Positions 3,228-46,727 of a stretch of 64,000 bases of DNA are shown one piece after another. The stretch lies in the NCBI GenBank assembly GCA_036398095.1, contig DASWHR010000027.1:8174-72173 (forward strand). The letters are read 5' to 3'. The position numbers and the translations under genes were made by a program. This DNA is from Actinomycetota bacterium. Its GTDB lineage: Bacteria; Actinomycetota; AC-67. Within the stretch, counting starts at the first letter, position 1; each line of letters starts with the position of its first letter. Under the pieces are notes generated by a model. The model did not search any database. It was not told where the DNA came from and saw only the letters and a list, made by a program, of their open reading frames with translations.

Positions 3228-4139
3228 TCAGCGCGTGATGGTGCTTCCGAGGAGGATTCCGTTGGCCCAGTAGGCGCCGGTTGGCCCGTCCGGAAGCAGG
3301 TCGTAGGTCGCGGATGCCTCGCGCCAAACGACATCGATGCCTTCGACGGTCGCGCCGTCCATCGGGTCCCCGGCCGCGAGCGCTCCGATGGGCCGGCCGC
3401 GGGCGTCGGGATGGGCGGATGCCGCGACCAGAACGCGGCCGTCGCTGAGCGTCAGGCGCAGCATCGGATGAGGCGATCCGACCGGACGCCGAACCGTCCG
3501 AAGGACCGGCGCGGCCACGCGGCGCCCGCGCGCGTCCATCGTCCATACAAGATCGCCGGAGCGGAGCGTGGTCACGTCGCGATCCCCCGACGGTGTCGCG
3601 ATCAGCGTGCCGGCCGCCAGGCAGATCGGACAGAACGCGTCGACGGGTCGCTGCGTCGCGACGTGAATCGAGCCGTTGCGGGCGATCGTGCCGTCGATCG
3701 CGGTCGCGTCGCCTTCGGTCCCCTCGTTAACGGTGAACCGCCAAGCGGCATCCGATGAGGTCAGCGCGATCACCCGGATTCGCTTGTGCACTTCGTAGAT
3801 GCGCATCGTCTGGTCGTCGGTGAGCGGCTCGCGATAGCCGAGCGACGCGCGGATCGCGGCGGCTTCCCTGGATCGTTCCGCGATTCGGTACCACGCGAGG
3901 CCGCGCTCGCGGCGCTCCTGCGGTCCGACGCCGACCGGATAATCGTCGGGATCGCAGAAGAAGATGTCGAAGCGCTCGTCCAGGGCGAGGCGCGCGTCCC
4001 ACTCGTCGGTGATCACGCCGCCGCTCGCCTGCGGCGAGGCCGACGGCGAAGGGGAGGCCGACGGCTCCGTGCGCTGTGGCCGATACGTGCAGGCGCCGGC
4101 AACCAGGGCCAGCAGCGCGACGAGCGCGATCCGCTTCAC
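3228..4139 (-). CDS. lipoprotein with C-terminal Hint (Hedgehog/intein-like) domain
   Basis: Lipobox VKRIALVALLALVAGAC, then a Ser/Pro-rich linker. The C-terminal block CPICLAAGTLIATPSGDRDVTTLRSGDLVW...LLPDGPTGAYWANGILLGST looks like a Hint module. The GTG start at 4139 overlaps the TGA of the upstream oxidoreductase (GTGA). Confidence 0.65.
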   Translation of the reverse strand: MKRIALVALLALVAGACTYRPQRTEPSASPSPSASPQASGGVITDEWDARLALDERFDIFFCDPDDYPVGVGPQERRERGLAWYRIAERSREAAAIRASLGYREPLTDDQTMRIYEVHKRIRVIALTSSDAAWRFTVNEGTEGDATAIDGTIARNGSIHVATQRPVDAFCPICLAAGTLIATPSGDRDVTTLRSGDLVWTMDARGRRVAAPVLRTVRRPVGSPHPMLRLTLSDGRVLVAASAHPDARGRPIGALAAGDPMDGATVEGIDVVWREASATYDLLPDGPTGAYWANGILLGSTITR

Positions 4140-5656
4140 GCTCCCAGCGCCACCCGCGCGGCGTTGCGGCCGGCTGTGCCCATCACGCCGCCGCCCGGCC
4201 GCGCTCCCGATCCGCACAGATACAGCCCCTCGATCGGTGTGCGGTAGTCGAAGCGCTCGCCGAAGGACTGCTCGGGCGTGATGGCGCCGTGAAAGATGTC
4301 ACCGCCGGTCAGCGCGAGCCGCTCTTCCAGGTCCGGCGCCGCGAGCACGTCCTCGGCCACGATCGCATCGCGAAGGTTCGGCGCGTAGGCCGCCAGCGCC
4401 GCCACCGCATTCTCGCGCGCTGCGGCGCGAACCAGGTCCCAATCCTCCGGAAGCGACGGCGCGTACTGCGTGAACGCGCTGAGCACGTGCCGGCCGGCCG
4501 GCGCCAGGGTCGGGTCGGTCGAGGACTGAAGAAAGACCTCCATGTACGGCCGCGGCGAGGGCATCGCGCCGCGAGCGTCCTCGCGCGCCTGCTGGATGTA
4601 TTCGATCGAAGGACAGATCTCGACCGTGCCGAAATGCTGCGACGCCGGCTCGGTTCCCGGCAGCATCGAAAACGACGGCAGCTCGCTCAGCGCCAGGTTC
4701 ACCTTCACCACCGCGCCCTCGTAGCGCCACGACGCGACCCGCTCGGCGAACGGCGACGGCAGCAGTCCCTCATCCAGCAAAGAACCGAACGTGACCGCCG
4801 GCGTCGCATTCGACAGCACCATCGGCGCTTCGACCAGCTTCCCGCCGGCAACCTCCACGCCTCGCACCCGCCCGCCGTCCACCACGATCCGCGCAACCGG
4901 CGACGAGACGCGGATGACCGCGCCCGCCTCACGCGCCGCCGCCGCGATCGCCTGCGTCACGCCGCCCATCCCGCCGCGCACGTACGCCCACGTCCCGTCC
5001 ATGCCGTTCAGCTCGCCGCCGATCGCGTGGAACGTCATGATCCAAGCGGTGCCGTCCTCCTCCGGCCCCAGCGCCGTCCCGATGATCCCTTGCCCGGCCA
5101 TCGGTCCTTGGATCTCGGGCGCGCCGAAGAACGAGCGCACCGTGCCGGCGCACGAGCCCGACACGCACATCCGGTACATCTCGTCTCCCAACGCGGCCCG
5201 CACGCCGTCCAGACCCGGCGGATCGGGCGACTCGACGAGCGGGCGGATCGCGGCGACCGCATCATCCCAGAATGCGCTCCAGCGCTTGTGTGCGTCCGCG
5301 TCGGCGGGACTGATCTTCGACAGCTCCGCGCGCGTGCGCTCGCCGTCGCGCCACACGAAGTAGTGGCGGCCGTCGGGCAGCGGCACGAACATCTGCGGAT
5401 CCTTCGGCGTGAACACCAGGCCGTGACGCGCCAGCTCCAGCTCGCGGTAGACGTCCGGCCGCAGCAGCGACAGCGAATACGACGCGGTCGAGATCCGGTA
5501 GCCCGGCGCGAGCTCTTCGGTGACGGCCGCGCCGCCGATCACGTCGCGCCGTTCCAACACCAGCACGCGCTTGCCGGCGCGCGCCAAGTAGGCGGCGGCG
5601 ACCAGTCCGTTGTGGCCGGCGCCGATCACGATCACGTCGTGTCGTTCGGCGATCAT
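4136..5656 (-). CDS. phytoene-desaturase (CrtI)-like FAD/NAD(P)-dependent oxidoreductase
   Basis: N-terminal Rossmann motif DVIVIGAGHNGLVAAAYLARAGKRVLVLE. About 500 aa with a C-terminal GSGARPGGGVMG motif typical of the CrtI/amine-oxidase fold. Confidence 0.75.
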   Translation of the reverse strand: MIAERHDVIVIGAGHNGLVAAAYLARAGKRVLVLERRDVIGGAAVTEELAPGYRISTASYSLSLLRPDVYRELELARHGLVFTPKDPQMFVPLPDGRHYFVWRDGERTRAELSKISPADADAHKRWSAFWDDAVAAIRPLVESPDPPGLDGVRAALGDEMYRMCVSGSCAGTVRSFFGAPEIQGPMAGQGIIGTALGPEEDGTAWIMTFHAIGGELNGMDGTWAYVRGGMGGVTQAIAAAAREAGAVIRVSSPVARIVVDGGRVRGVEVAGGKLVEAPMVLSNATPAVTFGSLLDEGLLPSPFAERVASWRYEGAVVKVNLALSELPSFSMLPGTEPASQHFGTVEICPSIEYIQQAREDARGAMPSPRPYMEVFLQSSTDPTLAPAGRHVLSAFTQYAPSLPEDWDLVRAAARENAVAALAAYAPNLRDAIVAEDVLAAPDLEERLALTGGDIFHGAITPEQSFGERFDYRTPIEGLYLCGSGARPGGGVMGTAGRNAARVALGA

Positions 5657-10559: not shown

Positions 10560-10934
10560 TTACGCCGGCGCGACGGCCAGCAGGCCATTCATGTCCGGAT
10601 GATTCGAGCAGTAGAAGCGGTACGTGCCCGGCTCCAGGCCGGGCACTCCGTTTACCTCGCTCACTTGGCCGGGCCCGATCTGGCCCGCCCAGAACAGCGG
10701 TGTCGCGTCGGCACGCAAGTCCTCCGAGACGATCGAATGGAAGCCGCCGACGGTGTCCGCGCTCGTGAACGTCAGCGACGCGCCCTGCTCGACCACAAGC
10801 GGCAGTTCCGGAACCTCGGTATCGCCCGGCAGGTACAGGAATGCCGCGACCGTGATAACGCCCGGCGTCGGATCGGCGGCGTGAGCGGGGACCACCCCGC
10901 TCAGGGCAAGCAGCATCGCAAGAGTGCGTCGCAC
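10560..10934 (-). CDS. cupredoxin (plastocyanin/amicyanin-like blue copper protein), secreted
   Basis: Type-1 copper ligand set H...C-x2-H-x2-M is visible (GGFHSIV ... GTYRFYCSNHPDMNG). Signal peptide VRRTLAMLLALSGVVPAHA. Start is GTG 10934 or ATG 10916. The listed ORF extends further upstream as frame noise. Confidence 0.75.
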   Translation of the reverse strand: MRRTLAMLLALSGVVPAHAADPTPGVITVAAFLYLPGDTEVPELPLVVEQGASLTFTSADTVGGFHSIVSEDLRADATPLFWAGQIGPGQVSEVNGVPGLEPGTYRFYCSNHPDMNGLLAVAPA

Positions 10935-11021
10935 GATGCTTCGTATTCGCCCTCGCAGCGTTCGGGTCCTCCCCCGTACGCTTTGATGGAACCGAACCGG
11001 TCCGGGCCGAGTCTTGACACC

Positions 11022-20767: not shown

Positions 20768-22375
20768 GTGAGACGCATCGCCGCTATCGCCGCACTCGCT
20801 TTGATCGCCGCCGCCCTCCCCGGCGGGGCGGATCCGGTCGAGATCGAACGCACCGACGCGATGGTCGCGATGAGCGATCACGTTCGTCTCGACGTCTCGC
20901 TCTACATCCCGCTCGTTGACTATCCCGACGGCGGCTTTCCCTTGATCGTGCGGCAGCACGGGGGCGGCTCGAGCAAGGACAGCGAATACGACGTGCGCTA
21001 CGGAATGAAGGCAGTGCAGACCGGCCGGTTCGCGCTGCTCACCTACTCGCACCGCGGCCACGGCGACTCGGAAGGGATCTTCGACTTCTTCGGCGAGCGC
21101 TCCGCGCAGGACGTGTCCGAGCTGCTCGAGTGGGTTGACGCAAAGACCGACGAGGTGGACGTGAGCCGCGTCGGCATGTGGGGCTACTCGCAGGGCGGCG
21201 GCCTGTCGCTGCTGCCGGCGATGACCGACCCGCGCATCAAGGCCGTCGCGATCGGCAACACCTTCGATGACCTCAACCATGCGCTCAACCCGAACGATTG
21301 CTTCAAGTTCTCGTTCGCCACCGGCATCTTCGCGCTCGCCTACAAGACCGCCGCCGCGCGCACCGACGACGCGACCGCGCTGCGCTGGGGCGCGCAGTGG
21401 AACACCGACACCGAAGACGTCGCGCTGCCCGTTCTCGGCTCGACGACCGACGAAGCCTTCGCGCACTCGCCGGCCGCGCATGTCGGCGGTACGCCCGGCA
21501 CCGTCTACGACACCGGCTTGAACGTGCCCGTCTTCTGGACGAACTCGTGGGAGGACGCGCTGTTTCCCGCCGACCACGGACTCGGCATGATCGCGGATCT
21601 GGATGCGCGCGGGATTCCCACGCACCTGTGGTTCGCATCCGGCGGCCACGAAGTGCCGGAGACGCACCCGGCCGACGAAGCCGGCAAAGAGCAGGCGATG
21701 CTGGAATGGTTCGAGGAGTTCCTGCTCGGCGTCGACCACGGCTACGCGAGCGGCGCGCGTCCGAAGGTCGACTACGCGCAGCGAATCCCCGGCGGCGGAT
21801 GGACGCACAAGACGGCATCCGCATGGCCGGTACCGGGCGACGACGTGACGCTGCACGCCGACGCAGACGGCAGCCTCGGTCCGGTCGCCACGCCGGGCAC
21901 GCTCGGCACGATCGTCAACACGGTCGCATCCGCGAACCTTGCCACCGAGCCGATCCTGTCCAACCGCGCCGCGCCGCTCGTGTCGAACATCGCCGACTCG
22001 CCCGAATCTCCCGCGACGCTGACGTTTGCGACCGACCCGGCCGCCGCGCCGTTCGAGTTCACCGGCGCTCCGCGCGTCGCGATCCGCTACGACAGCACCG
22101 CGCAGCGCGTCGCCCAGTTCAACGTCAAGCTGTGGGACGAGCACGATGGGCAGCGGCGGATGATCACGCGCGGGTGCTTGAGCGACGAGACCCCCGGTGA
22201 CGGAATCGCCGACTTCGACCTTTGGCCGAACTCTCACGTGCTCGCGCCCGGCCACCGCATCGTGATGACCATCTCAACCGTGGACTTCCCCACGTTCAAG
22301 CCCGACACCGAGCCGCAAACTTCCACGCTTGCCTCGGCCACGATCACGATCGGCAGCAGCAAGAGCGTGCATTGA
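20768..22375 (+). CDS. CocE/NonD-family (peptidase S15 / X-Pro dipeptidyl-peptidase-like) alpha/beta hydrolase, secreted
   Basis: Signal peptide, then GYSQGG (nucleophile elbow GxSxGG) and a C-terminal beta-sandwich domain. A GGGAGGAAA RBS precedes the GTG start. Confidence 0.75.
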   Translation: MRRIAAIAALALIAAALPGGADPVEIERTDAMVAMSDHVRLDVSLYIPLVDYPDGGFPLIVRQHGGGSSKDSEYDVRYGMKAVQTGRFALLTYSHRGHGDSEGIFDFFGERSAQDVSELLEWVDAKTDEVDVSRVGMWGYSQGGGLSLLPAMTDPRIKAVAIGNTFDDLNHALNPNDCFKFSFATGIFALAYKTAAARTDDATALRWGAQWNTDTEDVALPVLGSTTDEAFAHSPAAHVGGTPGTVYDTGLNVPVFWTNSWEDALFPADHGLGMIADLDARGIPTHLWFASGGHEVPETHPADEAGKEQAMLEWFEEFLLGVDHGYASGARPKVDYAQRIPGGGWTHKTASAWPVPGDDVTLHADADGSLGPVATPGTLGTIVNTVASANLATEPILSNRAAPLVSNIADSPESPATLTFATDPAAAPFEFTGAPRVAIRYDSTAQRVAQFNVKLWDEHDGQRRMITRGCLSDETPGDGIADFDLWPNSHVLAPGHRIVMTISTVDFPTFKPDTEPQTSTLASATITIGSSKSVH

Positions 22376-22420: not shown

Positions 22421-23137
22421 ATGGGACTACGTTCCCATGGGCGCTCCATACGAATGATCGCCATGGCGACTGCGGTTGGGATGGCGATCGCGGTTCCTAT
22501 CGCCCTCACGAGTGATCGTCTGCCGAGGGAGTCCGGTCACACCGTGCCCGCAGGCGCTCTCGCATCACCAACGCCGTCACTGACGCCATCGCCGGCGCCG
22601 CGACCGGGTCCGTACTACGTCGCCAAGGAGGATCATGATCGGGCGGCGGTGATCGCTCTTGGAGACTCCGGTGCGCAAGCGCTTCTTGGAACCTCCAAGT
22701 ACCGCGTCGTTTCGGTCATCGAGTACGGACCGTTGGGCCCGGCCGACAAGCCTGATCCGGCGGATCCATGTCTGTCGCGCGCATGTCTTCGAGTGGGCAT
22801 GTACAACTATACGAAGTCAGTTGTGGTACGCGTTTTTGTGGACCGATCGGCTTGGACGATTGTCGGAATCGAAGAGAGCCGGCAGACTGCGGGGCCCGGG
22901 CTCACCAACGAGGAAGTGGACCTCGCTCATTATCTGGCGGATCGCGATGTGCGCGTCCAAGCAATTGTCGGCAGCGATCACGCGCATCTTCGCGGGCCGT
23001 GGCCTGGAAGCACCATCGCCCCGGGGCCGTGTTCCGGTGAGATCAGCAGATGCGCGGTCGTGTTCTACAAGCTCGACTCGGACAAGCTCCTCGTTTTCGT
23101 GGACCTGAAATCGGACGAGGTCGTCGCCCTCATCTAA
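22421..23137 (+). CDS. secreted hypothetical protein encoded in a lower-GC segment
   Basis: Signal peptide MIAMATAVGMAIAVPIALTS and a Pro/Ser linker. The gene body is about 57% GC against about 70% for its neighbours. No known domain. Confidence 0.5.
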   Translation: MGLRSHGRSIRMIAMATAVGMAIAVPIALTSDRLPRESGHTVPAGALASPTPSLTPSPAPRPGPYYVAKEDHDRAAVIALGDSGAQALLGTSKYRVVSVIEYGPLGPADKPDPADPCLSRACLRVGMYNYTKSVVVRVFVDRSAWTIVGIEESRQTAGPGLTNEEVDLAHYLADRDVRVQAIVGSDHAHLRGPWPGSTIAPGPCSGEISRCAVVFYKLDSDKLLVFVDLKSDEVVALI

Positions 23138-23179: not shown

Positions 23180-25033
23180 CTACGCGGGAAGCACCGGCAG
23201 GTTCAGCCACGACTCCAGGCCGGCGCGGTGGTGGATCGTGTTCAGCGCCGGCTTGAGCAGGTTCAGGTGGTTCGGCGTGTCGGCCGAGTAGATATCGATC
23301 CGCAGCGAATGGCCGGCCGCGAACGTCTTCGCCGTCGGCCAGATCTCGATCTCGTAGGTGTCGCGCGGTCGCGGCGGCTGCAGCGAGCCGGCCGTATGCG
23401 GGTGATAGGCCGCGATCACGTCGCCGTTCGGCGCAAACATGGTCTTGGACCGATCCAGCGCCTGATGCGACGCCCGCAGATAGCCCTGCGTGATCAACGT
23501 CGAGCGTCCGGACGGATCCACGTCGGTCAGCTTCACCACGAAATCGGTGTCGTGATACGGCGGCAGCGTCTGTAGCAGGCCGGGAAGCGGCCCCGGGTCC
23601 GCGACGCCGGGAATCCCGACCGATGTCGCGCGCAGATGCAGGTTGATCGTGCCGGCGATCTTCATGGCCGAGGAGAACGGCACCGTCGTATACGTGAGGC
23701 CCTTCGGCTCGTCGGTGCGCTGATCCCAATCCATGTAGGCGGCGCCGGCGAGCGCGTTGTCCCACCGCGAGGCGATCTCGGCCGTGCCGGCCGCCGGGTT
23801 GTAGACGTAGCGCGCGTCGGCGTCCGTGCCGGGCGCGTCGGGAGAGAGCACGCCGCCTTCGCGCAAGTAGTAGCGCTGATAGGCCGTCTCGGCCGGCGGC
23901 CACTGCGACGCGCTGCGCCACTCGCCGGTCGCATCCAGATGCGCGCCCGTGCCGATCAGGTAGTACTGCACCCGCGGGCCGTTCATCCACAACGGCGCCG
24001 GCGCGCCGGCGAGCCAGTGCAGATACCAGGCGGCCAGCGCGTCGCGCAGGCCCGGCTTCGGTTCGGGCGTGATGAAGTGCGTCTGTCCGTGATTCCACGG
24101 TCCAACGATCACATAGTTCGGACCGCGGCCGGTTCCGTCGGATTCTTGCGCGTGGGCTTGGCGGAACATCTCCATGCTGCCGCGCGTGAACGCGTCGAAC
24201 CAGCCGGCCAGTTGCAGCACCGGCACGCGCAAGTTCTGGATGCGCGGCAGGGACGATGAGTCGTCGTAGAGCTTCTGCGTGAACGCCGGCGTGGTGTGAT
24301 TCGACGTATACGTCGCGTCCGAATAGGGCGCGTTGAGGTAGTGCAGCATCATCGGGTCGTTCTTCGTCAAGTGATCCGTCCAGGCCGTTTGTCCCTGCGG
24401 GGTGTTCACGTCGGTCGGCGGCTGGGTGTAGAAGCCCGTCGTCCCGGTGGACCATGCAAGCCCGAAGGACCCGATGACCTGGCCGCCGTGATAGACGATG
24501 TCGCGATACAGGTCGCCGTAGGCGCGCTGCGGTGCGATCGCCGCCAGATGCTCGGGCGCGAGCGACGGCGGGAGTGTCGCGACCAGGTTCTGGATGATCC
24601 CCGAGTACGAGCCGCCGTACATACCGACCTCGTCCAGGCACGCGTCGGGGAAGCCGGGCAGCGAAAGGTCGGCCGCCATGTCCACGGCCGCGGCCGCGTC
24701 CAGTTGCTCGCGCATCGAGAACACGATGTCGTATTCGCCCTCCGAGCCGCCGGTGCCGCGCGCGTCCACCTCGATCAATGCGATGCCGGCGCCCGGCAGG
24801 AACGAGGCGCCTTCGGCGGCGCGCGTCTCTTTGCGGTACGGCGTCAGCTCGACCACGCACGGGAAGGGACCGTCGCCGTCGCCGGGCAGGTAGACATCGG
24901 CGGCCAATCGGACGCCGTCGTCCATCACGAGCGGCACGTCGATGAATTTTCGCGGCTCGGCCGCGCGCGTGGCGGCCGGAGCCAGCAGCATGGCGGACGC
25001 GAGGGCGAGCCCGGTCAAACGCTTGATCTTCAC
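23180..25033 (-). CDS. CocE/NonD-family (S15) hydrolase, secreted (paralog of 20768..22375)
   Basis: Signal peptide VKIKRLTGLALASAMLLAPAATRA. GGSYSG nucleophile motif. 617 aa with the C-terminal jelly-roll. A GGGAGGAA RBS precedes GTG 25033. Confidence 0.75.
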   Translation of the reverse strand: MKIKRLTGLALASAMLLAPAATRAAEPRKFIDVPLVMDDGVRLAADVYLPGDGDGPFPCVVELTPYRKETRAAEGASFLPGAGIALIEVDARGTGGSEGEYDIVFSMREQLDAAAAVDMAADLSLPGFPDACLDEVGMYGGSYSGIIQNLVATLPPSLAPEHLAAIAPQRAYGDLYRDIVYHGGQVIGSFGLAWSTGTTGFYTQPPTDVNTPQGQTAWTDHLTKNDPMMLHYLNAPYSDATYTSNHTTPAFTQKLYDDSSSLPRIQNLRVPVLQLAGWFDAFTRGSMEMFRQAHAQESDGTGRGPNYVIVGPWNHGQTHFITPEPKPGLRDALAAWYLHWLAGAPAPLWMNGPRVQYYLIGTGAHLDATGEWRSASQWPPAETAYQRYYLREGGVLSPDAPGTDADARYVYNPAAGTAEIASRWDNALAGAAYMDWDQRTDEPKGLTYTTVPFSSAMKIAGTINLHLRATSVGIPGVADPGPLPGLLQTLPPYHDTDFVVKLTDVDPSGRSTLITQGYLRASHQALDRSKTMFAPNGDVIAAYHPHTAGSLQPPRPRDTYEIEIWPTAKTFAAGHSLRIDIYSADTPNHLNLLKPALNTIHHRAGLESWLNLPVLPA

Positions 25034-25195: not shown

Positions 25196-25552
25196 ATGCG
25201 GCGGGGTATCGGGGTATTCGCGCGCGTGCTGCTGGGGGTCCTGGCAGTGCTCGCTCTGGCGATGCCTGGGTCATTGCCTGCTCTCGCCGGCGAAACCTGC
25301 GTTTCCGAGCCCGACTCCAATCCCGGATCGGTTCCCGGCGTGACGCTCGGCCCCGCGACCAAGTGCGTCCGCGACGACGGCGGCGCCACCACGGCAGATC
25401 AAGCTCCGGCCGGCGCGCGAAGCGACGACGGCGCGACCTCGTGGGTCACGATCGCAGGGGCGGGCCTGGCGGTCGGAGGGTTTTCGTACGGATCGTGGCG
25501 CGTCCGCCGCCGCTTCCACCGCTCGCAGTCGCAAGCCCGCGCGGCGGCCTGA
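25196..25552 (+). CDS. small signal-peptide protein with C-terminal TM + basic tail
   Basis: MRRGIGVFARVLLGVLAVLALAMPGSLPALAGE...WVTIAGAGLAVGGFSYGSWRVRRRFHR. GC3 is high. The RBS is weak. Confidence 0.4.
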   Translation: MRRGIGVFARVLLGVLAVLALAMPGSLPALAGETCVSEPDSNPGSVPGVTLGPATKCVRDDGGATTADQAPAGARSDDGATSWVTIAGAGLAVGGFSYGSWRVRRRFHRSQSQARAAA

Positions 25553-25912
25553 TCAGCGGTAGCGGTAGGTGATCCGGCCGCGGTTGAGGTCGTAGGGCGA
25601 CAGCTCCAACTTCACGCGGTCGCCGGGCAGGATCCGGATGTAGTGCTTGCGCATCTTGCCGGAGATATGGCCGAGCACGATATGCCCGTTCTCCAGCTCG
25701 ACGCGGAACATCACGTTGGGCAGCGCCTCGGTGATGACGCCTTCCATCTCGATGGCCTCTTCTTTGGTGTTCTGCGAGCGAGCGAGCTGCTTTTCACGCT
25801 GCTCGGCCCGACTTTGGGCGCGCGCGGCCCGCGAAGCTGCGCCGCCTTTGCGCGCGCCTGGGCTTCGCTGCCCTCCCGGCCGTCCGCCGGGCTTTCTCGG
25901 TCGTCCTGCCAT
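25553..25912 (-). CDS. infA: translation initiation factor IF-1 homolog with ~55-aa basic N-terminal extension
   Basis: C-terminal 65 aa [63 protein letters not shown] are canonical IF-1. [10 protein letters not shown] matches the usual IF-1 N-terminus, but no start codon lies between ATG 25912 and the internal ATG at 25747. The gene is therefore either 119 aa with an R/K/G-rich extension or a truncated 65-aa form. Confidence 0.7.
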
Positions 25913-25924
25913 GGTTGTGTTCGG

Positions 25925-25953
25925 CTCACAAAAAACCGGCCTGCCGGCCGGCG
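25925..25953 (-). terminator. intrinsic terminator (minus strand) downstream of LOX-like gene
   Basis: Minus-strand sequence CCGGCC-ggca-GGCCGG followed by TTTTTTGTG, located about 50 nt after the 26005 stop and 20 nt before the infA ATG. Confidence 0.55.
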
Positions 25954-26004: not shown

Positions 26005-27204
26005 TCAGCAGCCGGGCGGCGGCGCGACGCATTCGGCTACGGTCATTCCGGCGATCCGGATGCGCGTGAAGGCCGAGTCGTTGTCTCGTGTGAGCTGGCG
26101 AAGGACGGCCGACGGATCGACCTCGACGACGACCGCGTAGACGCCGTCGTCCAAGTTCGAGATGTCCAGATACTGGCCGGGCAGATCCCAGGTGTAGACG
26201 TCCGCCCATCCGACGTCGATGCCTTGGCGCATCTCGGTCGGGCCGGCCGCGTCGCCGCCCGGCAGGTTGCACTGCGGGAAGTGATGGTTGCGCGGACCGT
26301 TGCCGGGCAGCCCGAACCACAGAAGCCGCGTGTCGATCATGCAGAAGTCGGCTTTGCGGGAGCGCAGAATCTCGGCGCCCGGCGTGCCGTCCGTGTTGAC
26401 CGCATGCAGCCGGTATTCGGCGAAGTTCTGATAGTGGACGTGTCCGTGCGTCGCATGCCACGTGTAGGTGCCGGCATCGGTCGTGGTGCGGGTCCCGTCG
26501 GCGGCGTAGACGTCCTGCCACACCACCGGATCGGTCGCCGCCGAGGCCGCGTCCAAGCGAAGCTCGAACGGTCCGTGTCCGAGGTTGGCGACCGCCGAGT
26601 CGAAGCGCAGGCAGCGAGTGAGCGACGGGTTTTCGGCGAGCTCGTCCGGATAGCACCCGCCGGTGTCTTGATATTCGACCGGCGTGAACGACAGCGCACC
26701 GGCCGCGATCTTGAACTCGGCGGGCGCGAGCGCGACAAGGTCTGGCTTCAGCGGATCGGTTCGCGTCGTGTCCAGCTCGACTTGCGCGATGCCGTCGTAG
26801 TTCGAGTCGATCGCCACCGCGGTGGGGATGACGACGACGTGGTAGAGGCCGTTCGCCGGCTCGCGCATGATCAGCGCTTCGGCCGAGGTGGGAAAGCCGG
26901 TCGCCGACGCGACCGTGGCGCCCGAGGCGTTGAGCACGTACAGGTCGAACACGTTGTATTCGCTGAACCAGCGGATCGCGACTTCGACGCCGCCGTCGTG
27001 GGTGTCCCAATAGCCGGCCGGCAGGTCGATCGTCAGATCGAAGCGGTCGGGCAGCGGCACGTCGCTCGTCGTCCAGGTGCGGCCGGTCCAGGCGAGCGTC
27101 GCCGACGGGTCCGACAGCGTCCCCTGATCGGGCGATGCGGCCGATGCGGGAAGCAGCACTCCGGCCAGCGCCAGCGCCGACAGCAGGATCAACACGCGTC
27201 GCAT
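26005..27204 (-). CDS. secreted lysyl-oxidase-like (LOX catalytic-domain) copper amine oxidase family protein
   Basis: Signal peptide MRRVLILLSALALAGVLLPASA. The motif YTWHATHGHVHYQNFAEY has the W-H-x2-H-x-H-x-H-Y spacing of the LOX copper site (WEWHSCHQHYH). About 399 aa. Confidence 0.6.
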   Translation of the reverse strand: MRRVLILLSALALAGVLLPASAASPDQGTLSDPSATLAWTGRTWTTSDVPLPDRFDLTIDLPAGYWDTHDGGVEVAIRWFSEYNVFDLYVLNASGATVASATGFPTSAEALIMREPANGLYHVVVIPTAVAIDSNYDGIAQVELDTTRTDPLKPDLVALAPAEFKIAAGALSFTPVEYQDTGGCYPDELAENPSLTRCLRFDSAVANLGHGPFELRLDAASAATDPVVWQDVYAADGTRTTTDAGTYTWHATHGHVHYQNFAEYRLHAVNTDGTPGAEILRSRKADFCMIDTRLLWFGLPGNGPRNHHFPQCNLPGGDAAGPTEMRQGIDVGWADVYTWDLPGQYLDISNLDDGVYAVVVEVDPSAVLRQLTRDNDSAFTRIRIAGMTVAECVAPPPGC

Positions 27205-27214
27205 GAATGCCTCC

Positions 27215-28054
27215 TCACAGAAGGATGCGGGGATCGTTGGTGATAACGCCGTCCACGCCCAGCGCGATCATCCGGGCCGCGTCGGCCGCGGAATCCACGG
27301 TCCAGGTGATGACGCGCCGGCCGAGCAGGTGCGCGGCGGCGACGCCTTCGGCGGTGAAATCGGCCGCCTCAAAGTCGGGCGCCGAGATCTCATAGCCGCG
27401 CGCCGTCGCATAGACCGCGTTCTCGGTCAGCAGGAATCCCAGGTCCGAGGTCGTCAGCAGCATCGTGTCGAGCGCCGGATCGAGCAACTCGACGCGGTCC
27501 AGCGCCGGCGGCCAGAACGACTGCACGATGATCCGATCCTTCGGGTACCCCGACGAGCCGATGAGCGCGACGAGCGCGTCGGCGACGAGCGTTCCGGCCG
27601 GATCGAAGTTGGTCTCGCCGGGAATGTCTTTGATCTCGATCATCACACCCCACGCGGGCGATGCCTGCATGCCGCGTGCCAGAACATCGGCAAGCAGCGG
27701 CACCGGCTCGAAGCCGAACGACGGCCGCCACCGCTTCGCCGCGTCGCACTCCGTGGCGCTGTAGGTCCAGTCGATGACCGGGCCGGCGCACGTCGTGGTG
27801 CGGTCGAGCGTGTCATCGTGAATCAGCACCAGCGCGCCGTCCGCGGTCGCTTGCGTGTCCATCTCGAGCCAGCCGTCCACGCCGGCGCCGGCGAACAGCG
27901 CGGCCGCGTTCTCGAAGGCCGCCATCGTGTTTTCGGGTGCGATCGATGCGCCGCCGCGATGCGCGTAGACGGTGACCGGCGACGCCGCGGCGGGTACGGC
28001 CTGAAGCGTGGCGGCGGCGACCGGAAGCAGGCAGAGCAGGGTTCGGATTCTCAC
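27215..28054 (-). CDS. glycerophosphodiester phosphodiesterase (GDPD family), secreted
   Basis: Signal peptide, then VYAHRGGASIAPENTMAAF (HR...PENT) and EMDTQATADGALVLIHDDTLDRTT, which are GDPD catalytic motifs. Confidence 0.85.
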   Translation of the reverse strand: MRIRTLLCLLPVAAATLQAVPAAASPVTVYAHRGGASIAPENTMAAFENAAALFAGAGVDGWLEMDTQATADGALVLIHDDTLDRTTTCAGPVIDWTYSATECDAAKRWRPSFGFEPVPLLADVLARGMQASPAWGVMIEIKDIPGETNFDPAGTLVADALVALIGSSGYPKDRIIVQSFWPPALDRVELLDPALDTMLLTTSDLGFLLTENAVYATARGYEISAPDFEAADFTAEGVAAAHLLGRRVITWTVDSAADAARMIALGVDGVITNDPRILL

Positions 28055-28106
28055 GAACGTGACTTTCTCCGCCGCCGGACCCGATTCCTGCCCTTAATCT
28101 CGGCCG

Positions 28107-28787
28107 TTATGCCGCAGCCTTCGCCTGCTCGATGAACTGCTCGATAGTCGCGACCGGCAAAGCGCCGACCGCGCGGGCGGCCACGCGCCCCCGCGCGTCG
28201 AGGAATACGAACGCGGGGAAGCTCGACATGCCGTAGGCCCCGAGCGCGGTGCTGGATTCGTCGTCGGCCAAGACCGGGACCGTCCAGCCTTCCCGTTCCA
28301 GCCAGGCCTTCGGCGGGAAGTTGCCGCGCACCTCGCTCACCGAGGTCGAGACCGAGACCACTTCGATCCCAGCCGGCGCGCCCTTTTCGGCGAGCCAGGC
28401 TTGGACGACCGGCACCTCCTTCTGGCACACGTGACACCAGTGGGCGATGAACATGATTACCTTCGGCGTGCCGTCGCGGGTGATCGCGATTGCGTCGCCG
28501 TCGAAGGTCGTGCCGCGCATCTCGGGTGCGAGCGCGCCGGCGGCCGGGTCTGGGGCGCCGCCCGAGGGGAAGTCGGGCAGCGCCTCGCCGGTCACGCTCA
28601 CATCCGAGCCGAACGCCGATCCGCCGGTGCCGTCCCCGCCCGACGTCACCACGACCGCGACCATCGCCGCGGCGGCGACGACGGCGAGGGCGATCCATCC
28701 GACGGGCGCTCGCCGCGAACCCCGCCGCTTCGCCTTAGCGCGCGCCTTCTGTCGCGAAATCTGCCGTCCGGCCGTCTTCGTGCTCAT
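28107..28787 (-). CDS. TlpA/ResA-like thiol:disulfide oxidoreductase (thioredoxin fold, membrane-anchored)
   Basis: N-terminal TM followed by a thioredoxin fold with WCHVCQ (CxxC). The start may be downstream of 28787, because that start overlaps the dsbB-like gene by 53 bp. Confidence 0.8.
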   Translation of the reverse strand: MSTKTAGRQISRQKARAKAKRRGSRRAPVGWIALAVVAAAAMVAVVVTSGGDGTGGSAFGSDVSVTGEALPDFPSGGAPDPAAGALAPEMRGTTFDGDAIAITRDGTPKVIMFIAHWCHVCQKEVPVVQAWLAEKGAPAGIEVVSVSTSVSEVRGNFPPKAWLEREGWTVPVLADDESSTALGAYGMSSFPAFVFLDARGRVAARAVGALPVATIEQFIEQAKAAA

Positions 28788-29355
28788 CGGTGGTCTCCTC
28801 GTCGAGAGTGTCGGGGCCCCGTCGCGGCAGCGTCAGCATCAGCACCGCGATCAGCGCGAACGCCGACAGAGCCATGAACGGAATCGAGATGTAATGGAAC
28901 TTCCAGATCCAGACCAGCGTGCAGGGCGCCTCGAGATCACACGAGACCGTCGACTGCGCCGGGAATCGTTCGAGTTGATAGTGGTAGATCGAAAGCAGCG
29001 CGCCGGCGATCGCCAGCGGCAACGCAAACCGCCGGATCGATGCGTCCCGCTTGATCCACGCCACGCCCAGCAGCAGCGTCATCGGGTACATCGCGATCCG
29101 TTGGTACCAGCACAGGCGGCACGGCGTGAAATGCGCGACCTCCGAGTAATACAGGCTGCCGGCCGTCGCGACGGCGGCCGCGACCCACGCGAAGCCGATC
29201 GCCGACGGCCGCAGAGATTCGGCGGCGCCGCGCAAGCGTGCGGCCCACGCGGGCGAGCGGCGCGCGGCGACCCATAGCCCGAGCGCCGCGACCACGAACA
29301 GGTTCGCGGCGACGGTCAGCAGGGCAAAGAACATCGAGAACGTGTCGGTCGTCAT
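28735..29355 (-). CDS. DsbB/BdbC-family disulfide bond formation protein
   Basis: Four-TM protein with Cys pairs (CRLCWYQRIAMYPM ... VSCDLEAPC). Trimmed to the ATG at 29355. Upstream of, and probably co-transcribed with, the TlpA-like gene. Confidence 0.7.
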   Translation of the reverse strand: MTTDTFSMFFALLTVAANLFVVAALGLWVAARRSPAWAARLRGAAESLRPSAIGFAWVAAAVATAGSLYYSEVAHFTPCRLCWYQRIAMYPMTLLLGVAWIKRDASIRRFALPLAIAGALLSIYHYQLERFPAQSTVSCDLEAPCTLVWIWKFHYISIPFMALSAFALIAVLMLTLPRRGPDTLDEETTDEHEDGRTADFATEGAR

Positions 29356-29491
29356 CGCCCGAAGTTTCGGTGGAATCGGGTGCGAGCGGCAGGGTCGTTC
29401 GGTCCCGGGACATCCGGGCCGTCCGGCCCTCAAAGCGCACGAAAGGGCACCATCCGGCGGATCGGATGCGCCCCCGGTAGCATCTGGGGCC

Positions 29492-39357: not shown

Positions 39358-39492
39358 CTGAGTCTATTGATGACGGCCGCCCGCGGCCGAATCGGGACAA
39401 CGCGGAGGCAAATCCGGGAATCCGGCCGAAGCGGAATCGCGTGGGCGAGGGGCGCGGCGGTGCCGCGGCGAACCCCTGTGCGAGGGGGTGCG

Positions 39493-40245
39493 ATGCGATC
39501 CAGGGCTCGTTTCATGATTCCGTTGATGCTGCTCGCGGTGATGGGGCTGGCGCCGCTGCCGTCCCACGCCGTGACGCAGATGTTCATCATGAACGACGTC
39601 AATTCCAGTCTGGACGTCTACCAGCCGGCCTACACCCCCACGAGCGCGCTGCTTGCGCCCGGGACGGAGGTCAAGTGGCGAAACGACGACTTCGGGTCGC
39701 GATCGATTCATACAGCCACGGCCTATTACGGCGCGGCCTTCGCGTCGTCGGCCGTCGATCCCGGCGCCACGTTTACCACCACCTACGCGGGCGGAACCGC
39801 CCTGTTTCGATGCCTGTACCACTCGTCGCTCGATATGACCCTCACCCCGCCGGCGTGTAGCGGCATGTGCGGCGCGCTGCACGACGCCACCCAGGATCTG
39901 GCGCCGCCCACGGTGTCGATCACGACCAGTGACGGATTCGTCTTCACCGGCGGCGTCCGCATCGACGGGGTCGCCTCCGACGATCGGGCGGTCAAGACGA
40001 TCGCGATCACGTTCCGTCCGATCGCCGAAGTCCCGACCGTTCTTCCCGCCAAGAGCGTCGTCGCGCAGTGTGCCGGATGCGACGGCCCGTCCGCGAAGTG
40101 GAAGACGTTTCAAGATCCGGGCGTGAAAGGGCAGGCGCCGTTCTTGACGATGCCGCCGGGTCCATACCGCGTCGAGGCGATCGCGACCGATCCGCACGGC
40201 AACACCGGCTCCGCGCAGCCGATCACCATCTACGTACTCACCTAG
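39493..40245 (+). CDS. secreted cupredoxin-like protein with additional C-terminal beta domain
   Basis: GAGGGGG RBS. Signal peptide MRSRARFMIPLMLLAVMGLAPLPSHA. Candidate type-1 Cu ligands are H (RSIHTA), C-x2-H-x4-M (ALFRCLYHSSLDM). Trimmed from the long listed ORF. Confidence 0.55.
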   Translation: MRSRARFMIPLMLLAVMGLAPLPSHAVTQMFIMNDVNSSLDVYQPAYTPTSALLAPGTEVKWRNDDFGSRSIHTATAYYGAAFASSAVDPGATFTTTYAGGTALFRCLYHSSLDMTLTPPACSGMCGALHDATQDLAPPTVSITTSDGFVFTGGVRIDGVASDDRAVKTIAITFRPIAEVPTVLPAKSVVAQCAGCDGPSAKWKTFQDPGVKGQAPFLTMPPGPYRVEAIATDPHGNTGSAQPITIYVLT

Positions 40246-44001: not shown

Positions 44002-44219
44002 CCACCGCAGCCTAATCGCTCATATTTCGGCTCGCCCGAGGTTCCGAGAGTTTCGATTTCTCCGCTTCCGAAGGAACGTCGAACCGCGATCGCGAATCGT
44101 TGAGCAGTCGAACGCAGGGAATGAGCCGTCCGGAGCAAAGAGGGGATGCTCCGGCCGGCCGTCCCCGCGGGGGCGAACCGGACAGATGGTTCACTAAGGA
44201 AATAGTGTCCGAAGGAAAT

Positions 44220-46727
44220 ATGACCCGGATTCGACTGCGGTTCCTCGTCGGCGCGCTCGCCGTGGTTCTGGCGATCCCCGGCGTCCGCGCGTCCGGCGAG
44301 ACGCCGCCGAAGATTCTCACCGTCGCCAACGACTCGACGCGTCCGCTCGCCTGGGACGGAACGGCCGTGCTGGCGCCGGCCGGCGTCCAGCAGTCGCAGC
44401 TGCGCGACGCGTCCTTCACCGCCGGCGCGGCCCATCAGCGTTTCGTCGCGAAGGTCGGACCGGCACGCGAGGCGCGCGTGACGATCTGGATCCACTGGGA
44501 GACCCCTGAGGATCTCGCCCTGGCCGTCACCGACGGAAAGCAAACGACCTACGCATCTTCGGACGAACAAGCCGGCACCGACGAGATCGTCTCGTTCGAC
44601 GTCGCGAACGGCGCGACCTACACGGTCGAGGTGTATGCGAAAGCCGGCGCACCCACCGGGGTGCGGCCCCAGTACGAGGCGACCGCCTGGGTTCGCCACG
44701 CCGACGGGATCAATACCACCAAGCGCGCCAACGCCACCTTGAAGTTCGTCAAGCCGAACGTGTGCGGCGATCCCAACTATCGCGTCGATGCGAACGGCTC
44801 GCGCGTCTACGAGCCGCCGCCGCCGTGCTACATGAAGCTGAAGATGCCGATTAACGTAGTCTTCGTCGGCTTCGACAAGGCCGAGGTGGACGCGCACAAG
44901 CCGGACGTCGCCGGCCAGTTCCCCGACCCAGACCCGCGCGCCCAATTGGTCAAGCCGATCGTCGAGAACGAATCGCGCACCGGCGGGGGCGTGCCGCTCG
45001 CGCGGAACGGCGGAAGCCAGGTGCGCCAGGCCGCCATGCTTCAGGGTTCGGCGATGAGCTATCTGCCGTGGGCGTACGATTTTGGCGAGCCCAACATCGT
45101 GGTCACCGACGAGGCCTGGACGCGCCGGCTGTTCGGCGCGGCGAAGGCGGCGACGACGTCGGGGGAGTACGCGCACCCCTGGGATCGCGCCTATCTGGAG
45201 TCCTACAACGGCCGTGCCGCCGCGCTCCGCCGCGATCATCCGGTCGTGCCCGGCTCGCCGGTGGACTTCATCGACGCGATGAAGGTCGAAGACTGGATCG
45301 CCAAGAACCCGCCGAAGGGATTGAAGTTCAACCCGGCCGACTCCGCGCTCGGATTCACCTATTTCGTCATCGACACCTACCGTCCGTCATATGCCGGCGA
45401 ATACTTCAACGTGGACCGTTACCACAATTTCCGCGTTATGAACTCGCTCACGACCGACCCCGATACCGGCGAGCAGCGCGGATTCGACTGGGGCCGCGTT
45501 TGGGGCGGCCGCTACCGGTTCTTGATGCTCGACGTCGGCGCGGCGCCGAACTCGTTCGAAGGATCCACGCCGGTCAACGGCGCGACTTACCGCGTCGCCG
45601 GAGGCGGCGATTCCGCGCTGCTGGATCCACCGGTGTGGGAGTACGCGAACTGCGCCGCGATCGACTGCCGCGACTTGCTGCCGATCATGTATCAGCGGAT
45701 CGGCGAGAACGCGCTCAGCGCGTTGTATACGCGTTTCGCGCGCGGATATGCCACCCGCCCGCGCGCCACCGATCTGTACCTGTTGTCGTCGAACACCTGG
45801 ACCGACGCGAACGCGGTCACCGACGCCCCGCCGCGCTACGACGCCAAGCGCGTCGCCGCGAGCGTCTACGACCTGATGCGCTACACGCGCGTCGTGCCGT
45901 TCACCCGCGCGAAGACGCTCCACGCCGGCGACGCCGAGCAAGAGGCGCTCGACGCCGCGCGAATGCAGTCGGCCGCGCGGCTGCCGTCGGGGACCGGAGC
46001 CGACCCGCATCCGGTGATGCGGATGATGCTTCGCGACCGAGCGGCCTACGCGCCGAAGATCCCCGGTTCGATTTCGATTCCGATCGTCAACGCGCTGCTT
46101 CCCGGCGCGACGTCGTGGAACGGCGCCGACGCCGACGGCTCGCTCCTTGCCGACCTCGGCGGCGACCCGTGGGGGCTCGTGCAGTCGATCAGCGACGCCG
46201 GGGCGGCACCGGTTGAGCGGGGCTTCACCGTGCCCGCGATCCGAAACGTCGGCCGCGTGCTCGGGCTGTATCCCGCGACGGAAGGCATCGCCTACACCCG
46301 CGACTTGCCGCCGGACGTGAACGCGCCGCGGCCTCATCCGGCGAAGGCGGACGAGCAGTATCGCGCCTACTACAAGACGTTCGACTGGACGCACGCGACG
46401 ACCGCGACGCCCATGGCGGCGGGATGGTTCTATTCGCGCTTCGAGATCCTGGACAAGGACGCGATCGGGATCGCGCACGCGTTCGACTGGCTCGACCGGT
46501 CGCTCGACGACGTCGCCGACGCGTTCGCGATCCTGGACGTGCGCGGGCACCGGACGCTGCCGAAGGCCGTGGAAGATCAGATCATGCGCGCCGGAACCTT
46601 CATGGGCCAGACCGTCGCCTACGTTCAGTTCGGCCTGATGACCCAAGCCGTGCGCGCCGCCCGTCGCGCCAAGACCGAGACCGAAAAAGTCGTCACCACC
46701 GCGATCAGGGCCGGGGTCCGTCGCTAG
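44220..46727 (+). CDS. large secreted protein of unknown function (~835 aa)
   Basis: AAGGAAA RBS. Signal peptide MTRIRLRFLVGALAVVLAIPGVRASG. There is no domain I can name. It is preceded by a 218-bp structured leader. Confidence 0.6.
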   Translation: MTRIRLRFLVGALAVVLAIPGVRASGETPPKILTVANDSTRPLAWDGTAVLAPAGVQQSQLRDASFTAGAAHQRFVAKVGPAREARVTIWIHWETPEDLALAVTDGKQTTYASSDEQAGTDEIVSFDVANGATYTVEVYAKAGAPTGVRPQYEATAWVRHADGINTTKRANATLKFVKPNVCGDPNYRVDANGSRVYEPPPPCYMKLKMPINVVFVGFDKAEVDAHKPDVAGQFPDPDPRAQLVKPIVENESRTGGGVPLARNGGSQVRQAAMLQGSAMSYLPWAYDFGEPNIVVTDEAWTRRLFGAAKAATTSGEYAHPWDRAYLESYNGRAAALRRDHPVVPGSPVDFIDAMKVEDWIAKNPPKGLKFNPADSALGFTYFVIDTYRPSYAGEYFNVDRYHNFRVMNSLTTDPDTGEQRGFDWGRVWGGRYRFLMLDVGAAPNSFEGSTPVNGATYRVAGGGDSALLDPPVWEYANCAAIDCRDLLPIMYQRIGENALSALYTRFARGYATRPRATDLYLLSSNTWTDANAVTDAPPRYDAKRVAASVYDLMRYTRVVPFTRAKTLHAGDAEQEALDAARMQSAARLPSGTGADPHPVMRMMLRDRAAYAPKIPGSISIPIVNALLPGATSWNGADADGSLLADLGGDPWGLVQSISDAGAAPVERGFTVPAIRNVGRVLGLYPATEGIAYTRDLPPDVNAPRPHPAKADEQYRAYYKTFDWTHATTATPMAAGWFYSRFEILDKDAIGIAHAFDWLDRSLDDVADAFAILDVRGHRTLPKAVEDQIMRAGTFMGQTVAYVQFGLMTQAVRAARRAKTETEKVVTTAIRAGVRR

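Follow-up and report, generated by a model that had tools for sequence, protein, structure and literature searches.

Homologues of animal lysyl oxidases (LOX) have been known from bacteria since at least 2015, when a survey by Grau-Bove et al. recorded the family domain PF01186 in Actinobacteria (including Streptomyces), Proteobacteria, Bacteroidetes, Gemmatimonadetes and Deinococcus-Thermus (PMC4448552). These bacterial proteins usually carry a signal peptide and are of unknown function, and collagen-like proteins of bacteria have not been described as targets of LOX-type cross-linking (PMC4448552). The LOX of the archaeon Haloterrigena (HTU-LOX) is, after removal of its leader, an active, BAPN-sensitive amine oxidase of relaxed specificity; it oxidizes a wide range of small amines, and the authors of that study suggested that it serves to acquire nitrogen from unusual amines (PMC6452851).

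The gene described here lies within 64,000 nucleotides of DNA (the window) from an uncultured soil actinomycetotan and is an ordinary new member of this known family. The identical protein is already present at NCBI under the name "lysyl oxidase family protein", and among species-representative genomes relatives occur at no fewer than 305 places, spread over about nine phyla, so that the initial annotation, which had called the domain rare in bacteria, was right only in a relative sense. The architecture found here, a signal peptide followed by a PPC-like domain and a LOX domain, defines a clade of more than 1,000 clusters at 50% identity (E<=1e-30), mostly from uncultured Actinomycetota. It is very probable that the product of the gene is a LOX-family enzyme with two domains that is exported via Sec, and that the DsbB-TlpA pair encoded upstream is a general module and not a maturation system dedicated to LOX. 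As it stands, the gene matters little, since the family is known, the protein has been annotated automatically and the idea of a maturation operon fails on comparison with relatives. The value that remains is modest: a sizeable clade with this architecture is documented, and a bacterial LOX that is both compact and secreted could offer a tractable system for studying the biogenesis of lysine tyrosylquinone (LTQ).

The LOX gene and its product

The gene and the features of its product are as follows:

26005..27204, minus strand: LOX gene, 399 amino acids, encoding a signal peptide, a PPC-like domain and a LOX catalytic domain
27139..27204, minus strand: predicted signal peptide, residues 1-22, Sec type as read by eye (MRR, hydrophobic core, A-S-A cleavage motif)
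26755..27138, minus strand: N-terminal beta-jelly-roll of the PPC / collagen-binding-domain type, about residues 23-150
26008..26739, minus strand: LOX catalytic domain, about residues 156-399, from superposition on LOXL2 and the Pfam match
26431..26460, minus strand: copper motif W249-H250-x2-H253-x-H255-x-H257-Y258, from a phmmer alignment to LOXL2 5ze3
26353..26355, minus strand: Lys284, the LTQ-precursor lysine, in SRKADFC, aligned with LOXL2 K653
26194..26196, minus strand: Tyr337, the LTQ-precursor tyrosine, in GWADVY, aligned with LOXL2 Y689
25925..25952, minus strand: terminator-like GC hairpin with a T-run, 53 nt past the LOX stop codon

The GC3 of the open reading frame (0.87) is normal for real genes in a window of 68% GC. 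The product matches the PF01186 profile far beyond chance (residues 242-388, E 5e-12, 46.3 bits against a gathering cutoff of 20.4). The match spans model positions 73-198 of 204, i.e. the C-terminal two-thirds, and the remainder of the assignment rests on the predicted fold, in which 201 residues superpose on the catalytic domain of LOXL2, indicating that the LOX fold is present. A search of the NCBIfam profiles returned no LOX model matching the protein. The copper motif is contained in TWHATHGHVHYQNF (residues 248-261). H253, H255 and H257 align with the LOXL2 copper ligands H626, H628 and H630 (phmmer, 5ze3), H250 is the equivalent of LOX H289, and all four histidines are invariant in 49 of 49 homologues. 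Tyr337 is likewise invariant (49/49) and Lys284 is kept in 48 of the 49, the sole exception looking like an alignment shift of one column; C184, C198, C288 and D291 vary little or not at all in the same set. Among 88 bacterial loci, the H-x2-H-x-H-x-H motif together with the lysine and the tyrosine is retained in 84, and the latter two residues in 86.

The gene encodes a protein of the lysyl oxidase family with all catalytic residues; its secretion is predicted, and its copper and LTQ chemistry as well as its substrate class are putative. The initial annotation had proposed a LOX copper motif behind a signal peptide and had named a PF01186 search and an alignment of the LTQ lysine and tyrosine as checks; motif and Sec-type leader are both present, and the significant profile match and the conserved residue pair bear the proposal out.

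The N-terminus (MRRVLILLSALALAGVLLPASA/AS, the slash marking the predicted cleavage site) shows, by eye, the n-, h- and c-regions of a Sec signal peptide, and the predicted structure contains a leader helix at residues 2-14 with low pLDDT. The hydrophobic leader is kept in LOX homologues but the RR pair is not, which argues against export via the Tat pathway, and this route was rejected. The protein would thus be extracellular and exported via Sec, with a leader that is conserved in its homologues. It contains six cysteines, four of which are invariant or nearly so, and three disulfides are predicted; the catalytic domain of LOXL2 has ten cysteines. Downstream of the gene, the hairpin is probably the 3' end of the transcription unit; it is a pattern-based call, as the number of terminator-like sites in the region does not exceed chance and only the position of this one is suggestive. 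An Rfam search of 24-31 kb for regulatory RNAs gave no match at E<=0.1, and a scan for sigma-70 promoters, which is uninformative for a high-GC actinobacterium, found none.

With human LOXL2 (PDB 5ZE3) and the animal LOX/LOXL proteins, the protein shares the W-H-x2-H-x-H-x-H copper motif, the positions of the LTQ lysine (K..FC) and tyrosine (D.Y), the cysteine following that lysine (C288 here, C657 in LOXL2) and, as a prediction, secretion. In contrast, identity is only about 20-24%, SRCR domains and the animal propeptide are replaced by the PPC-type jelly-roll, and a collagen or elastin context is absent. The likeness to HTU-LOX, compared by description, comprises a prokaryotic origin, an N-terminal hydrophobic leader, a pre-catalytic N-terminal segment, conserved copper histidines, the LTQ lysine and tyrosine, and a cryptic native role. 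However, HTU-LOX is archaeal and has a short auto-inhibitory stretch where the present protein has a folded PPC domain, and of the two, activity and relaxed amine specificity have been demonstrated experimentally for HTU-LOX only. Two further differences concern the 2015 survey, in which architectures were mostly single-domain and the first histidine of the motif was described as missing in bacteria (PMC4448552), whereas the present clade adds an N-terminal PPC-like domain and keeps H250 invariantly.

After export, the catalytic domain would bind Cu(II) via H253, H255 and H257, with H250 nearby, and copper and O2 would drive the self-processing of Tyr337 and Lys284 to LTQ. The mature enzyme would then act on primary amines, either small amines or peptidyl lysine, by oxidative deamination, forming aldehydes, NH3 and H2O2. 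The jelly-roll might serve as a stabilizing, targeting or auto-inhibitory module. LTQ biogenesis is regarded as a self-processing reaction that needs only copper and O2, and therefore a maturation factor or accessory gene is not expected.

Upstream genes and their distribution among relatives

Upstream of the LOX gene, the following features were identified:

27215..28054, minus strand: secreted GDPD (PF03009 2.6e-34, 119.8 bits against a cutoff of 23.6; HRGG and ENT motifs)
28107..28787, minus strand: TlpA/ResA/DsbE-F-type protein with a thioredoxin fold, a membrane anchor and a WCHVC active site (PF00578, PF08534, PF13098)
28735..29355, minus strand: DsbB/BdbC-type membrane disulfide oxidoreductase (PF02600 1.2e-13; NF002849 (PRK03113) 132.1 bits against 124)
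27980..29475, minus strand: lineage-specific segment with the DsbB gene, the TlpA-like gene and the 5' end of the GDPD gene, in place of which the sister genome L001 has 136 bp (blastn of the window)

The three genes reported initially, dsbB-like, tlpA-like (overlapping) and GDPD, directly upstream and on the same strand, were all recovered. The GDPD is a generic representative of its family: equivalog-level NCBIfam models score below cutoff, and its closest solved relatives are PDB 2pz0 and 5t91 GlpQ. The gene that follows it upstream is "TlpA/ResA-like" in the broad sense only and not TlpA proper: the NCBIfam models for ResA, StoA and TlpA are all far below cutoff (18.2 bits against 230 for the TlpA equivalog NF047696), and its PDB relatives are Etrx, ResA, StoA and DsbF of Mtb. 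In the DsbB-like protein, C79-x2-C82 and C139/C145 are invariant in 37 aligned sequences. As in the BdbC/BdbD system of Bacillus and the DsbE/DsbF-type systems of Mycobacterium, a membrane oxidoreductase of the DsbB/BdbC family with two cysteine pairs is followed immediately downstream by the gene for a membrane-anchored CxxC thioredoxin-fold partner, but this partner belongs to the ResA/TlpA/AhpC-TSA type rather than to the DsbA/BdbD (Thioredoxin_4) type.

The spacings between the four genes are -53, +52 and +10 nt, the first being an overlap of the DsbB-like and TlpA-like open reading frames. At the last junction, the GDPD stop codon lies inside the GGAGG Shine-Dalgarno motif of the LOX gene, and in L001 the two genes overlap as ATGA. 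LOX closes a cluster of genes on the same strand and would be closely coupled in translation to the secreted GDPD. We infer co-transcription of the cluster, and, given the tight packing of all four genes on one strand and their stable order, LOX is likely to be co-expressed with DsbB-TlpA.

The arrangement is identical in three assemblies, which are 99.0-99.5% identical and therefore represent one species. L001, the nearest different genome (about 80% nucleotide identity), is fully collinear and has the order luciferase-like / GDPD / LOX / infA, devoid of DsbB and TlpA; in the next relative, L003, the order is luciferase-like / LOX / infA, and the GDPD gene is missing as well. Relative to L001, the DsbB-TlpA pair is thus an indel of roughly 1.4 kb, and the 86 further loci of LOX relatives that were retrieved lack it as well. 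Homologues of DsbB or TlpA were found at 0 of 89 loci of LOX relatives, even at E<=0.05, and the 25 commonest neighbour families of 40 two-domain LOX relatives include no thiol-redox family. Conversely, a TlpA-like partner lies beside DsbB at 46 of 63 DsbB loci, and LOX or GDPD near DsbB at 0 of 83. The pair occurs in three unrelated contexts, one of them in the metagenome-assembled genome GCA_040905475.1, where a LOX relative and a DsbB-Redoxin pair sit on separate contigs and the several kb that flank either of them do not contain the other. When 148 neighbours of DsbB-TlpA were scanned with Pfam, 219 families came up, none with more than four members and none enriched. On this comparison of gene order, the pair appears to be a free-standing general disulfide-bond (housekeeping) module that was inserted here recently and by chance. 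It may nevertheless help to fold the three predicted disulfides of the LOX protein, as it would for any exported protein, and a local functional benefit to LOX in this species may exist.

It should be noted that an HMA protein, a P-type ATPase and a multicopper oxidase were seen near DsbB-TlpA in the first three contexts. The copper link of the pair that this suggested was rejected, since tblastn found each of the three in one or two of the 83 DsbB loci and no copper family was enriched in the scan of 148 neighbours. A search for mobile-element signatures at the indel yielded only short repeats at chance level; a 13-mer is present at 27933 and 29376, near the boundaries, with a third copy within the segment.

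Possible roles of the locus

The neighbourhoods of LOX relatives are heterogeneous. Among 142 neighbours scanned with Pfam, the counts were seven for SDR, four for CoA-transferase and three each for aldehyde dehydrogenase, MFS and Cupredoxin_1; the scan for a conserved partner of the clade revealed synteny within sub-clades only, too thin for a pathway.

One possible role would be a secreted scavenging route, in which the GDPD cleaves glycerophosphodiesters, e.g. glycerophosphoethanolamine, to glycerol-3-phosphate and a primary amine such as ethanolamine, and the LOX-type oxidase deaminates the amine to NH3 as a nitrogen source, an aldehyde and H2O2. The signal peptides on both proteins and the close coupling of the genes in the window and in L001 are consistent with such a route, as are the activity of the archaeal LOX on many small amines, with its proposed role in nitrogen acquisition (PMC6452851), and the aldehyde dehydrogenase, SDR, MFS or flavin amine oxidase genes that adjoin some relatives and suggest small-molecule catabolism. 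However, the linkage of GDPD and LOX is limited to two close lineages, the species of the window and L001, the other 83 loci of LOX relatives show a single GDPD, 4 kb away and on the opposite strand, and L003 lacks the gene. In addition, the GDPD is generic (nearest solved relatives 2pz0 and GlpQ). The route is therefore unlikely; if true, it would free and deaminate the amines of phospholipid head groups, which would be less striking than a role in cross-linking.

In the latter role, the protein would be a true oxidase of peptidyl lysine, forming cross-links in a surface, sheath or matrix polymer made of protein, to which it would bind through the PPC/collagen-binding-domain-like module. Uncultured soil Actinomycetota would then possess allysine-based protein cross-linking, a bacterial counterpart of the maturation of the animal extracellular matrix. 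In animals, LOX chemistry serves to cross-link proteins, the present protein is predicted to be secreted, and the PPC-like module is conserved throughout the two-domain clade, most matches covering more than 90% of the query. Against this stand the generic occurrence of PPC domains as appendages of secreted enzymes, the lack of a conserved candidate substrate gene beside relatives, the lack of a collagen-like (G-X-Y) open reading frame in the window, where a run of six or more G-X-Y triplets was found in no frame, and the lack of described precedents among bacterial collagen-like proteins (PMC4448552). We thus regard cross-linking as rather improbable.

Very doubtful, since comparative genomics has largely refuted it, is a DsbB-TlpA-GDPD-LOX operon functioning in the envelope, with a thiol-redox pair dedicated to the folding or the cofactor or copper maturation of LOX: it would fit the tight same-strand spacing, the order shared by the three assemblies, the six cysteines with their conserved quartet and the need of LOX, as a Sec-exported protein, to form disulfides and acquire copper outside the cell, but the three assemblies are one species, neither the sister genome nor the outgroup has the pair at the collinear site, the association is found at none of the 89 LOX and 83 DsbB loci, the two are on separate contigs in GCA_040905475.1, LTQ formation is regarded as autocatalytic and the copper ligands are histidines, not cysteines. 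The suggestion of a co-localized context for folding and cofactor maturation is not supported, DsbB and TlpA being absent from L001, L003 and all 89 LOX loci.

The general-module reading is thus retained for the pair. A copper theme had also been proposed from two cupredoxins elsewhere in the window, for which the candidates are:

about 10560..10950, minus strand: small secreted cupredoxin-like protein (H...C-x2-H-x2-M; PF13473 E 6e-5, 23.4 bits, below the cutoff of 27)
about 39490..40245, plus strand: cupredoxin-like protein (C-x2-H-x4-M; no Pfam match)

The theme thus relies on two putative cupredoxins that are unlinked to the LOX gene, at a distance of 12-15 kb. No Pfam match is above cutoff for either protein, and the cupredoxins themselves stand at the level of their motifs.

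The lysyl oxidase-like protein

The G+C content of the window is 64-71% along its whole length, and a third-position GC of about 0.8-0.9 marks its real genes. The lysyl oxidase (LOX)-like gene belongs to a minus-strand gene series.

Genes at the LOX-like locus
29355..28735, minus: DsbB/BdbC-like protein (PF02600, 1.2e-13; NF002849, 132 bits against a cutoff of 124)
28787..28107, minus: TlpA/ResA-like thioredoxin-fold protein (AhpC-TSA/Redoxin/Thioredoxin_2; WCHVC motif; N-terminal membrane anchor)
28054..27215, minus: GDPD (PF03009, 2.6e-34; own signal peptide)
27204..26005, minus: LOX-like protein (PF01186, 5e-12; 46.3 bits against 20.4)
core ~25765..25553, ORF 25553..25912, minus: infA
divergent from the minus-strand series, plus: luciferase-like monooxygenase

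The LOX copper motif, the signal peptide and the upstream same-strand dsbB-like, tlpA-like and GDPD genes described in the initial annotation are confirmed, far beyond chance, and the proposed Lysyl_oxidase profile search returned the tabulated PF01186 match. The TlpA-like open reading frame overlaps that of DsbB by 53 nt and is followed after 52 nt by the GDPD gene, the stop codon of which lies inside a GGAGG Shine-Dalgarno motif, 6 nt before the LOX ATG; a GC hairpin with a T-run is found 53 nt past the LOX stop codon. Co-transcription of the four genes is likely.

The copper-motif string TWHATHGHVHYQNF occupies residues 248-261 of the LOX-like protein. At the N-terminus, MRR, a hydrophobic core and ASA-A make up a classical Sec leader, and Tat export is unlikely because the homologues keep the hydrophobic leader without the RR pair. 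The only PDB match obtained with phmmer is human LOXL2 (5ZE3, in which the published residue number is the chain index plus 317), and in this alignment H253, H255 and H257 correspond to LOXL2 H626, H628 and H630. The search for the Lys/Tyr pair that forms the lysine tyrosylquinone (LTQ) cofactor was likewise positive, with K284 aligned to K653 (SRKADFC versus GHKASFC) and Y337 to Y689 (GWADVY versus GCWDMY). Among 49 homologues with 30-79% identity, H250, H253, H255, H257, Y337, C184, C198, C288 (the counterpart of the LOXL2 Cys after the LTQ Lys) and D291 are invariant, and K284 and C312 are present in 48. The full H-x2-H-x-H-x-H, K and Y set is found in 84 of 88 loci with LOX relatives from many phyla. 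H250 (human H289), the first His of the copper motif, is kept in 86 of the 88 bacterial loci; according to a 2015 survey, bacterial sequences lack it (PMC4448552).

An AlphaFold2 model built from the 49-homologue alignment is confident (pLDDT 89.3, pTM 0.87) and agrees with the PF04151 matches precomputed for several homologues; the architecture is a signal peptide, a PPC-like N-terminal jelly-roll domain and a LOX domain. The protein has all testable defining features of the LOX family, and neither of the outcomes named in the initial annotation as refuting the assignment occurred. An identical protein (P0001, 100% identity and coverage), named 'lysyl oxidase family protein', is already in NCBI/ENA, where its source is an uncultured 'Actinomycetota bacterium' MAG (73.6-kb contig), and the protein is a new yet ordinary addition to a family that was known and annotated before.

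With family membership, catalytic residues, fold and gene order of the LOX-like gene established, its chemistry, predicted from sequence, would be copper- and LTQ-dependent, BAPN-sensitive amine oxidation. The protein would be exported by Sec and form up to three disulfides, including the conserved pairs C184-C198 and C288-C312; Cu(II) would be bound at H253/H255/H257, Y337 and K284 would be self-processed to LTQ, and primary amines would be oxidised to aldehydes, NH3 and H2O2. The PPC-like domain may serve to stabilise the enzyme, to target it or to restrain it; in HTU-LOX, a prokaryotic LOX from Haloterrigena, a stretch at the N-terminus is reported to be inhibitory (PMC6452851). The enzyme might scavenge small amines, possibly supplied by the adjacent secreted GDPD; among 89 loci with LOX relatives, a GDPD gene adjoins the LOX gene only in the nearest different genome. 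Cross-linking of protein is another tentative possibility.

Distribution and neighbourhoods of LOX relatives

The peptide pattern G[IV]x[VRP]GW[AG]D[VIW]Y retrieved 305 confirmed LOX relatives from 185,579 species-representative genomes, in Actinomycetota, Acidobacteriota, Planctomycetota, Chloroflexota, Verrucomicrobiota, Pseudomonadota, Myxococcota, Elusimicrobiota, Patescibacteria and Dormibacterota. When 1.84 billion 50%-identity cluster representatives were searched with a profile built from the 49 homologues, 8,976 matched at E<=1e-3, 5,378 at E<=1e-10 and 1,061 at E<=1e-30, counts that take in any eukaryotic LOX and, at the weak end, PPC-only matches. LOX is on record in five bacterial phyla, Actinobacteria among them (PMC4448552), and an archaeal LOX is active and BAPN-sensitive; its specificity for amines is relaxed and its native role cryptic (PMC6452851). 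From these counts and published enzymes, the domain, which had been called rare in bacteria, is indeed uncommon but not exceptional.

The gene order of the window recurs in two further assemblies, which are 99.5% and 99.0% identical to it and therefore represent the same species. The nearest different genome (L001, identical to L002 and L010; LOX 79% amino acid identity) is collinear with the window over more than 12 kb at 80-82% nucleotide identity, with the exception of one segment: window positions 29475..27980 (1,496 bp, containing DsbB, the TlpA-like gene and the GDPD leader) are replaced by 136 bp (3807..3942). Its order is luciferase-like, GDPD, LOX, infA, and the GDPD and LOX genes overlap by ATGA. 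In the next relatives (L003/L004, LOX 51% amino acid identity) the order is luciferase-like, LOX, infA, without GDPD and without the redox pair. The pair is a roughly 1.4-kb indel in an otherwise collinear region; a single gain or relocation in the lineage of the window is the most parsimonious history, and the indel may exemplify cassette-like movement of a two-gene disulfide module. Neither a transposase nor convincing flanking repeats were found at the indel.

Distant LOX relatives are found in unrelated contexts: with an MFS transporter and a flavin amine oxidase, in an SDR-LOX-SDR-methyltransferase order with a CoA-transferase, or with cytochrome oxidase genes. No DsbB or TlpA homologue was detected in the 89 loci by tblastn with the window proteins, even at E<=0.05, and DsbB, thioredoxin and GDPD are not among the 25 commonest Pfam families of 142 neighbours of 40 two-domain relatives. 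The proposed folding and cofactor-maturation context is thus unsupported, the pair being missing from all 89 loci, L001 and L003 among them.

In one PPC-LOX sub-clade (including L007 and L008), the order CoA-transferase/SDR/LOX/SDR/methyltransferase is conserved beside a Tad-pilus cluster, and Cupredoxin_1 occurs in 3 of the 142 neighbours; both may hint at sub-clade-specific pathways.

The DsbB and TlpA-like pair

DsbB has many homologues (at least 4,681 at E<=1e-10), and an alignment of 37 sequences shows no change in either Cys pair. Three distant Actinomycetota genomes have a Redoxin/AhpC-TSA gene directly after DsbB, overlapping it by 4 nt; the three contexts differ, and none includes LOX or GDPD. 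One of these loci (L093) shares its MAG with a LOX relative (L007), but the two are on separate contigs, and neither locus contains the other's gene. Because 46 of the 63 DsbB loci, metagenomic or genomic, that leave room downstream have a TlpA-like partner directly after DsbB, LOX or GDPD occurs in 0 of 83 DsbB loci, the contexts vary, and a suspected association with copper was tested and rejected, the pair forms a self-contained extracytoplasmic disulfide module, probably a housekeeping one. Among solved structures, the TlpA-like protein is closest to Etrx, ResA, StoA and M. tuberculosis DsbF; its score against the TlpA equivalog model, 18 bits, is below the cutoff of 230.

Cupredoxin-like candidates and further genes

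Pfam detected no cupredoxin in the 39 confident ORFs scanned in the window. A motif search revealed two small secreted proteins in which the ligand spacing is type-1-copper-like.

Cupredoxin-like proteins
~10560..10950, minus: C-x2-H-x2-M; PF13473 (Cupredoxin_1) at E 6e-5, below the gathering score
~39490..40245, plus: C-x2-H-x4-M; no Pfam match; runs on into a second domain

Thus, of the 'two cupredoxins elsewhere' two motif-level candidates are left, neither of which reaches the Pfam threshold; their genes belong to other transcription units, 15 and 12 kb away from LOX. Cupredoxins are not known to take part in LOX function.

A solitary infA adjoins the LOX gene, a position kept in L001 and L003. 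Where it starts is ambiguous: the ORF has room for 119 aa, with an N-terminal extension that is basic and rich in Arg, Gly and Pro, the lengths called in relatives are 64-77 aa, and the first in-frame internal ATG would cut off the usual IF-1 N-terminus. The 118-aa product of ORF 25196..25552 (plus) combines a signal peptide with a middle part rich in Pro, Gly and Asp; its C-terminal hydrophobic helix and the RVRRRF after it resemble a signal for sorting or anchoring. No Pfam family matches it, and a similar-sized gene convergent with infA occupies the position of this ORF in L001, L003 and L090, one of the same-species assemblies. S15 X-Pro dipeptidyl-peptidase-like paralogues with signal-peptide-like leaders (20768..22375, plus; 23180..25033, minus) flank the locus; between them lies a 238-aa ORF (22421..23137) without a Pfam match, where L001 has two small genes. 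At a distance of about 21 kb from the LOX gene are genes for a flavin-containing amine oxidase (4136..5656, minus) and for a protein with a Hint domain (3228..4217, minus); the LOX relative in locus L005 has a flavin amine oxidase as its convergent neighbour, too. The sole Pfam signal of an 875-aa protein (44100..46727, plus) is PPC, below threshold (24.7 bits versus 25.9); it would be a second protein of the window with a PPC domain, and is probably secreted.
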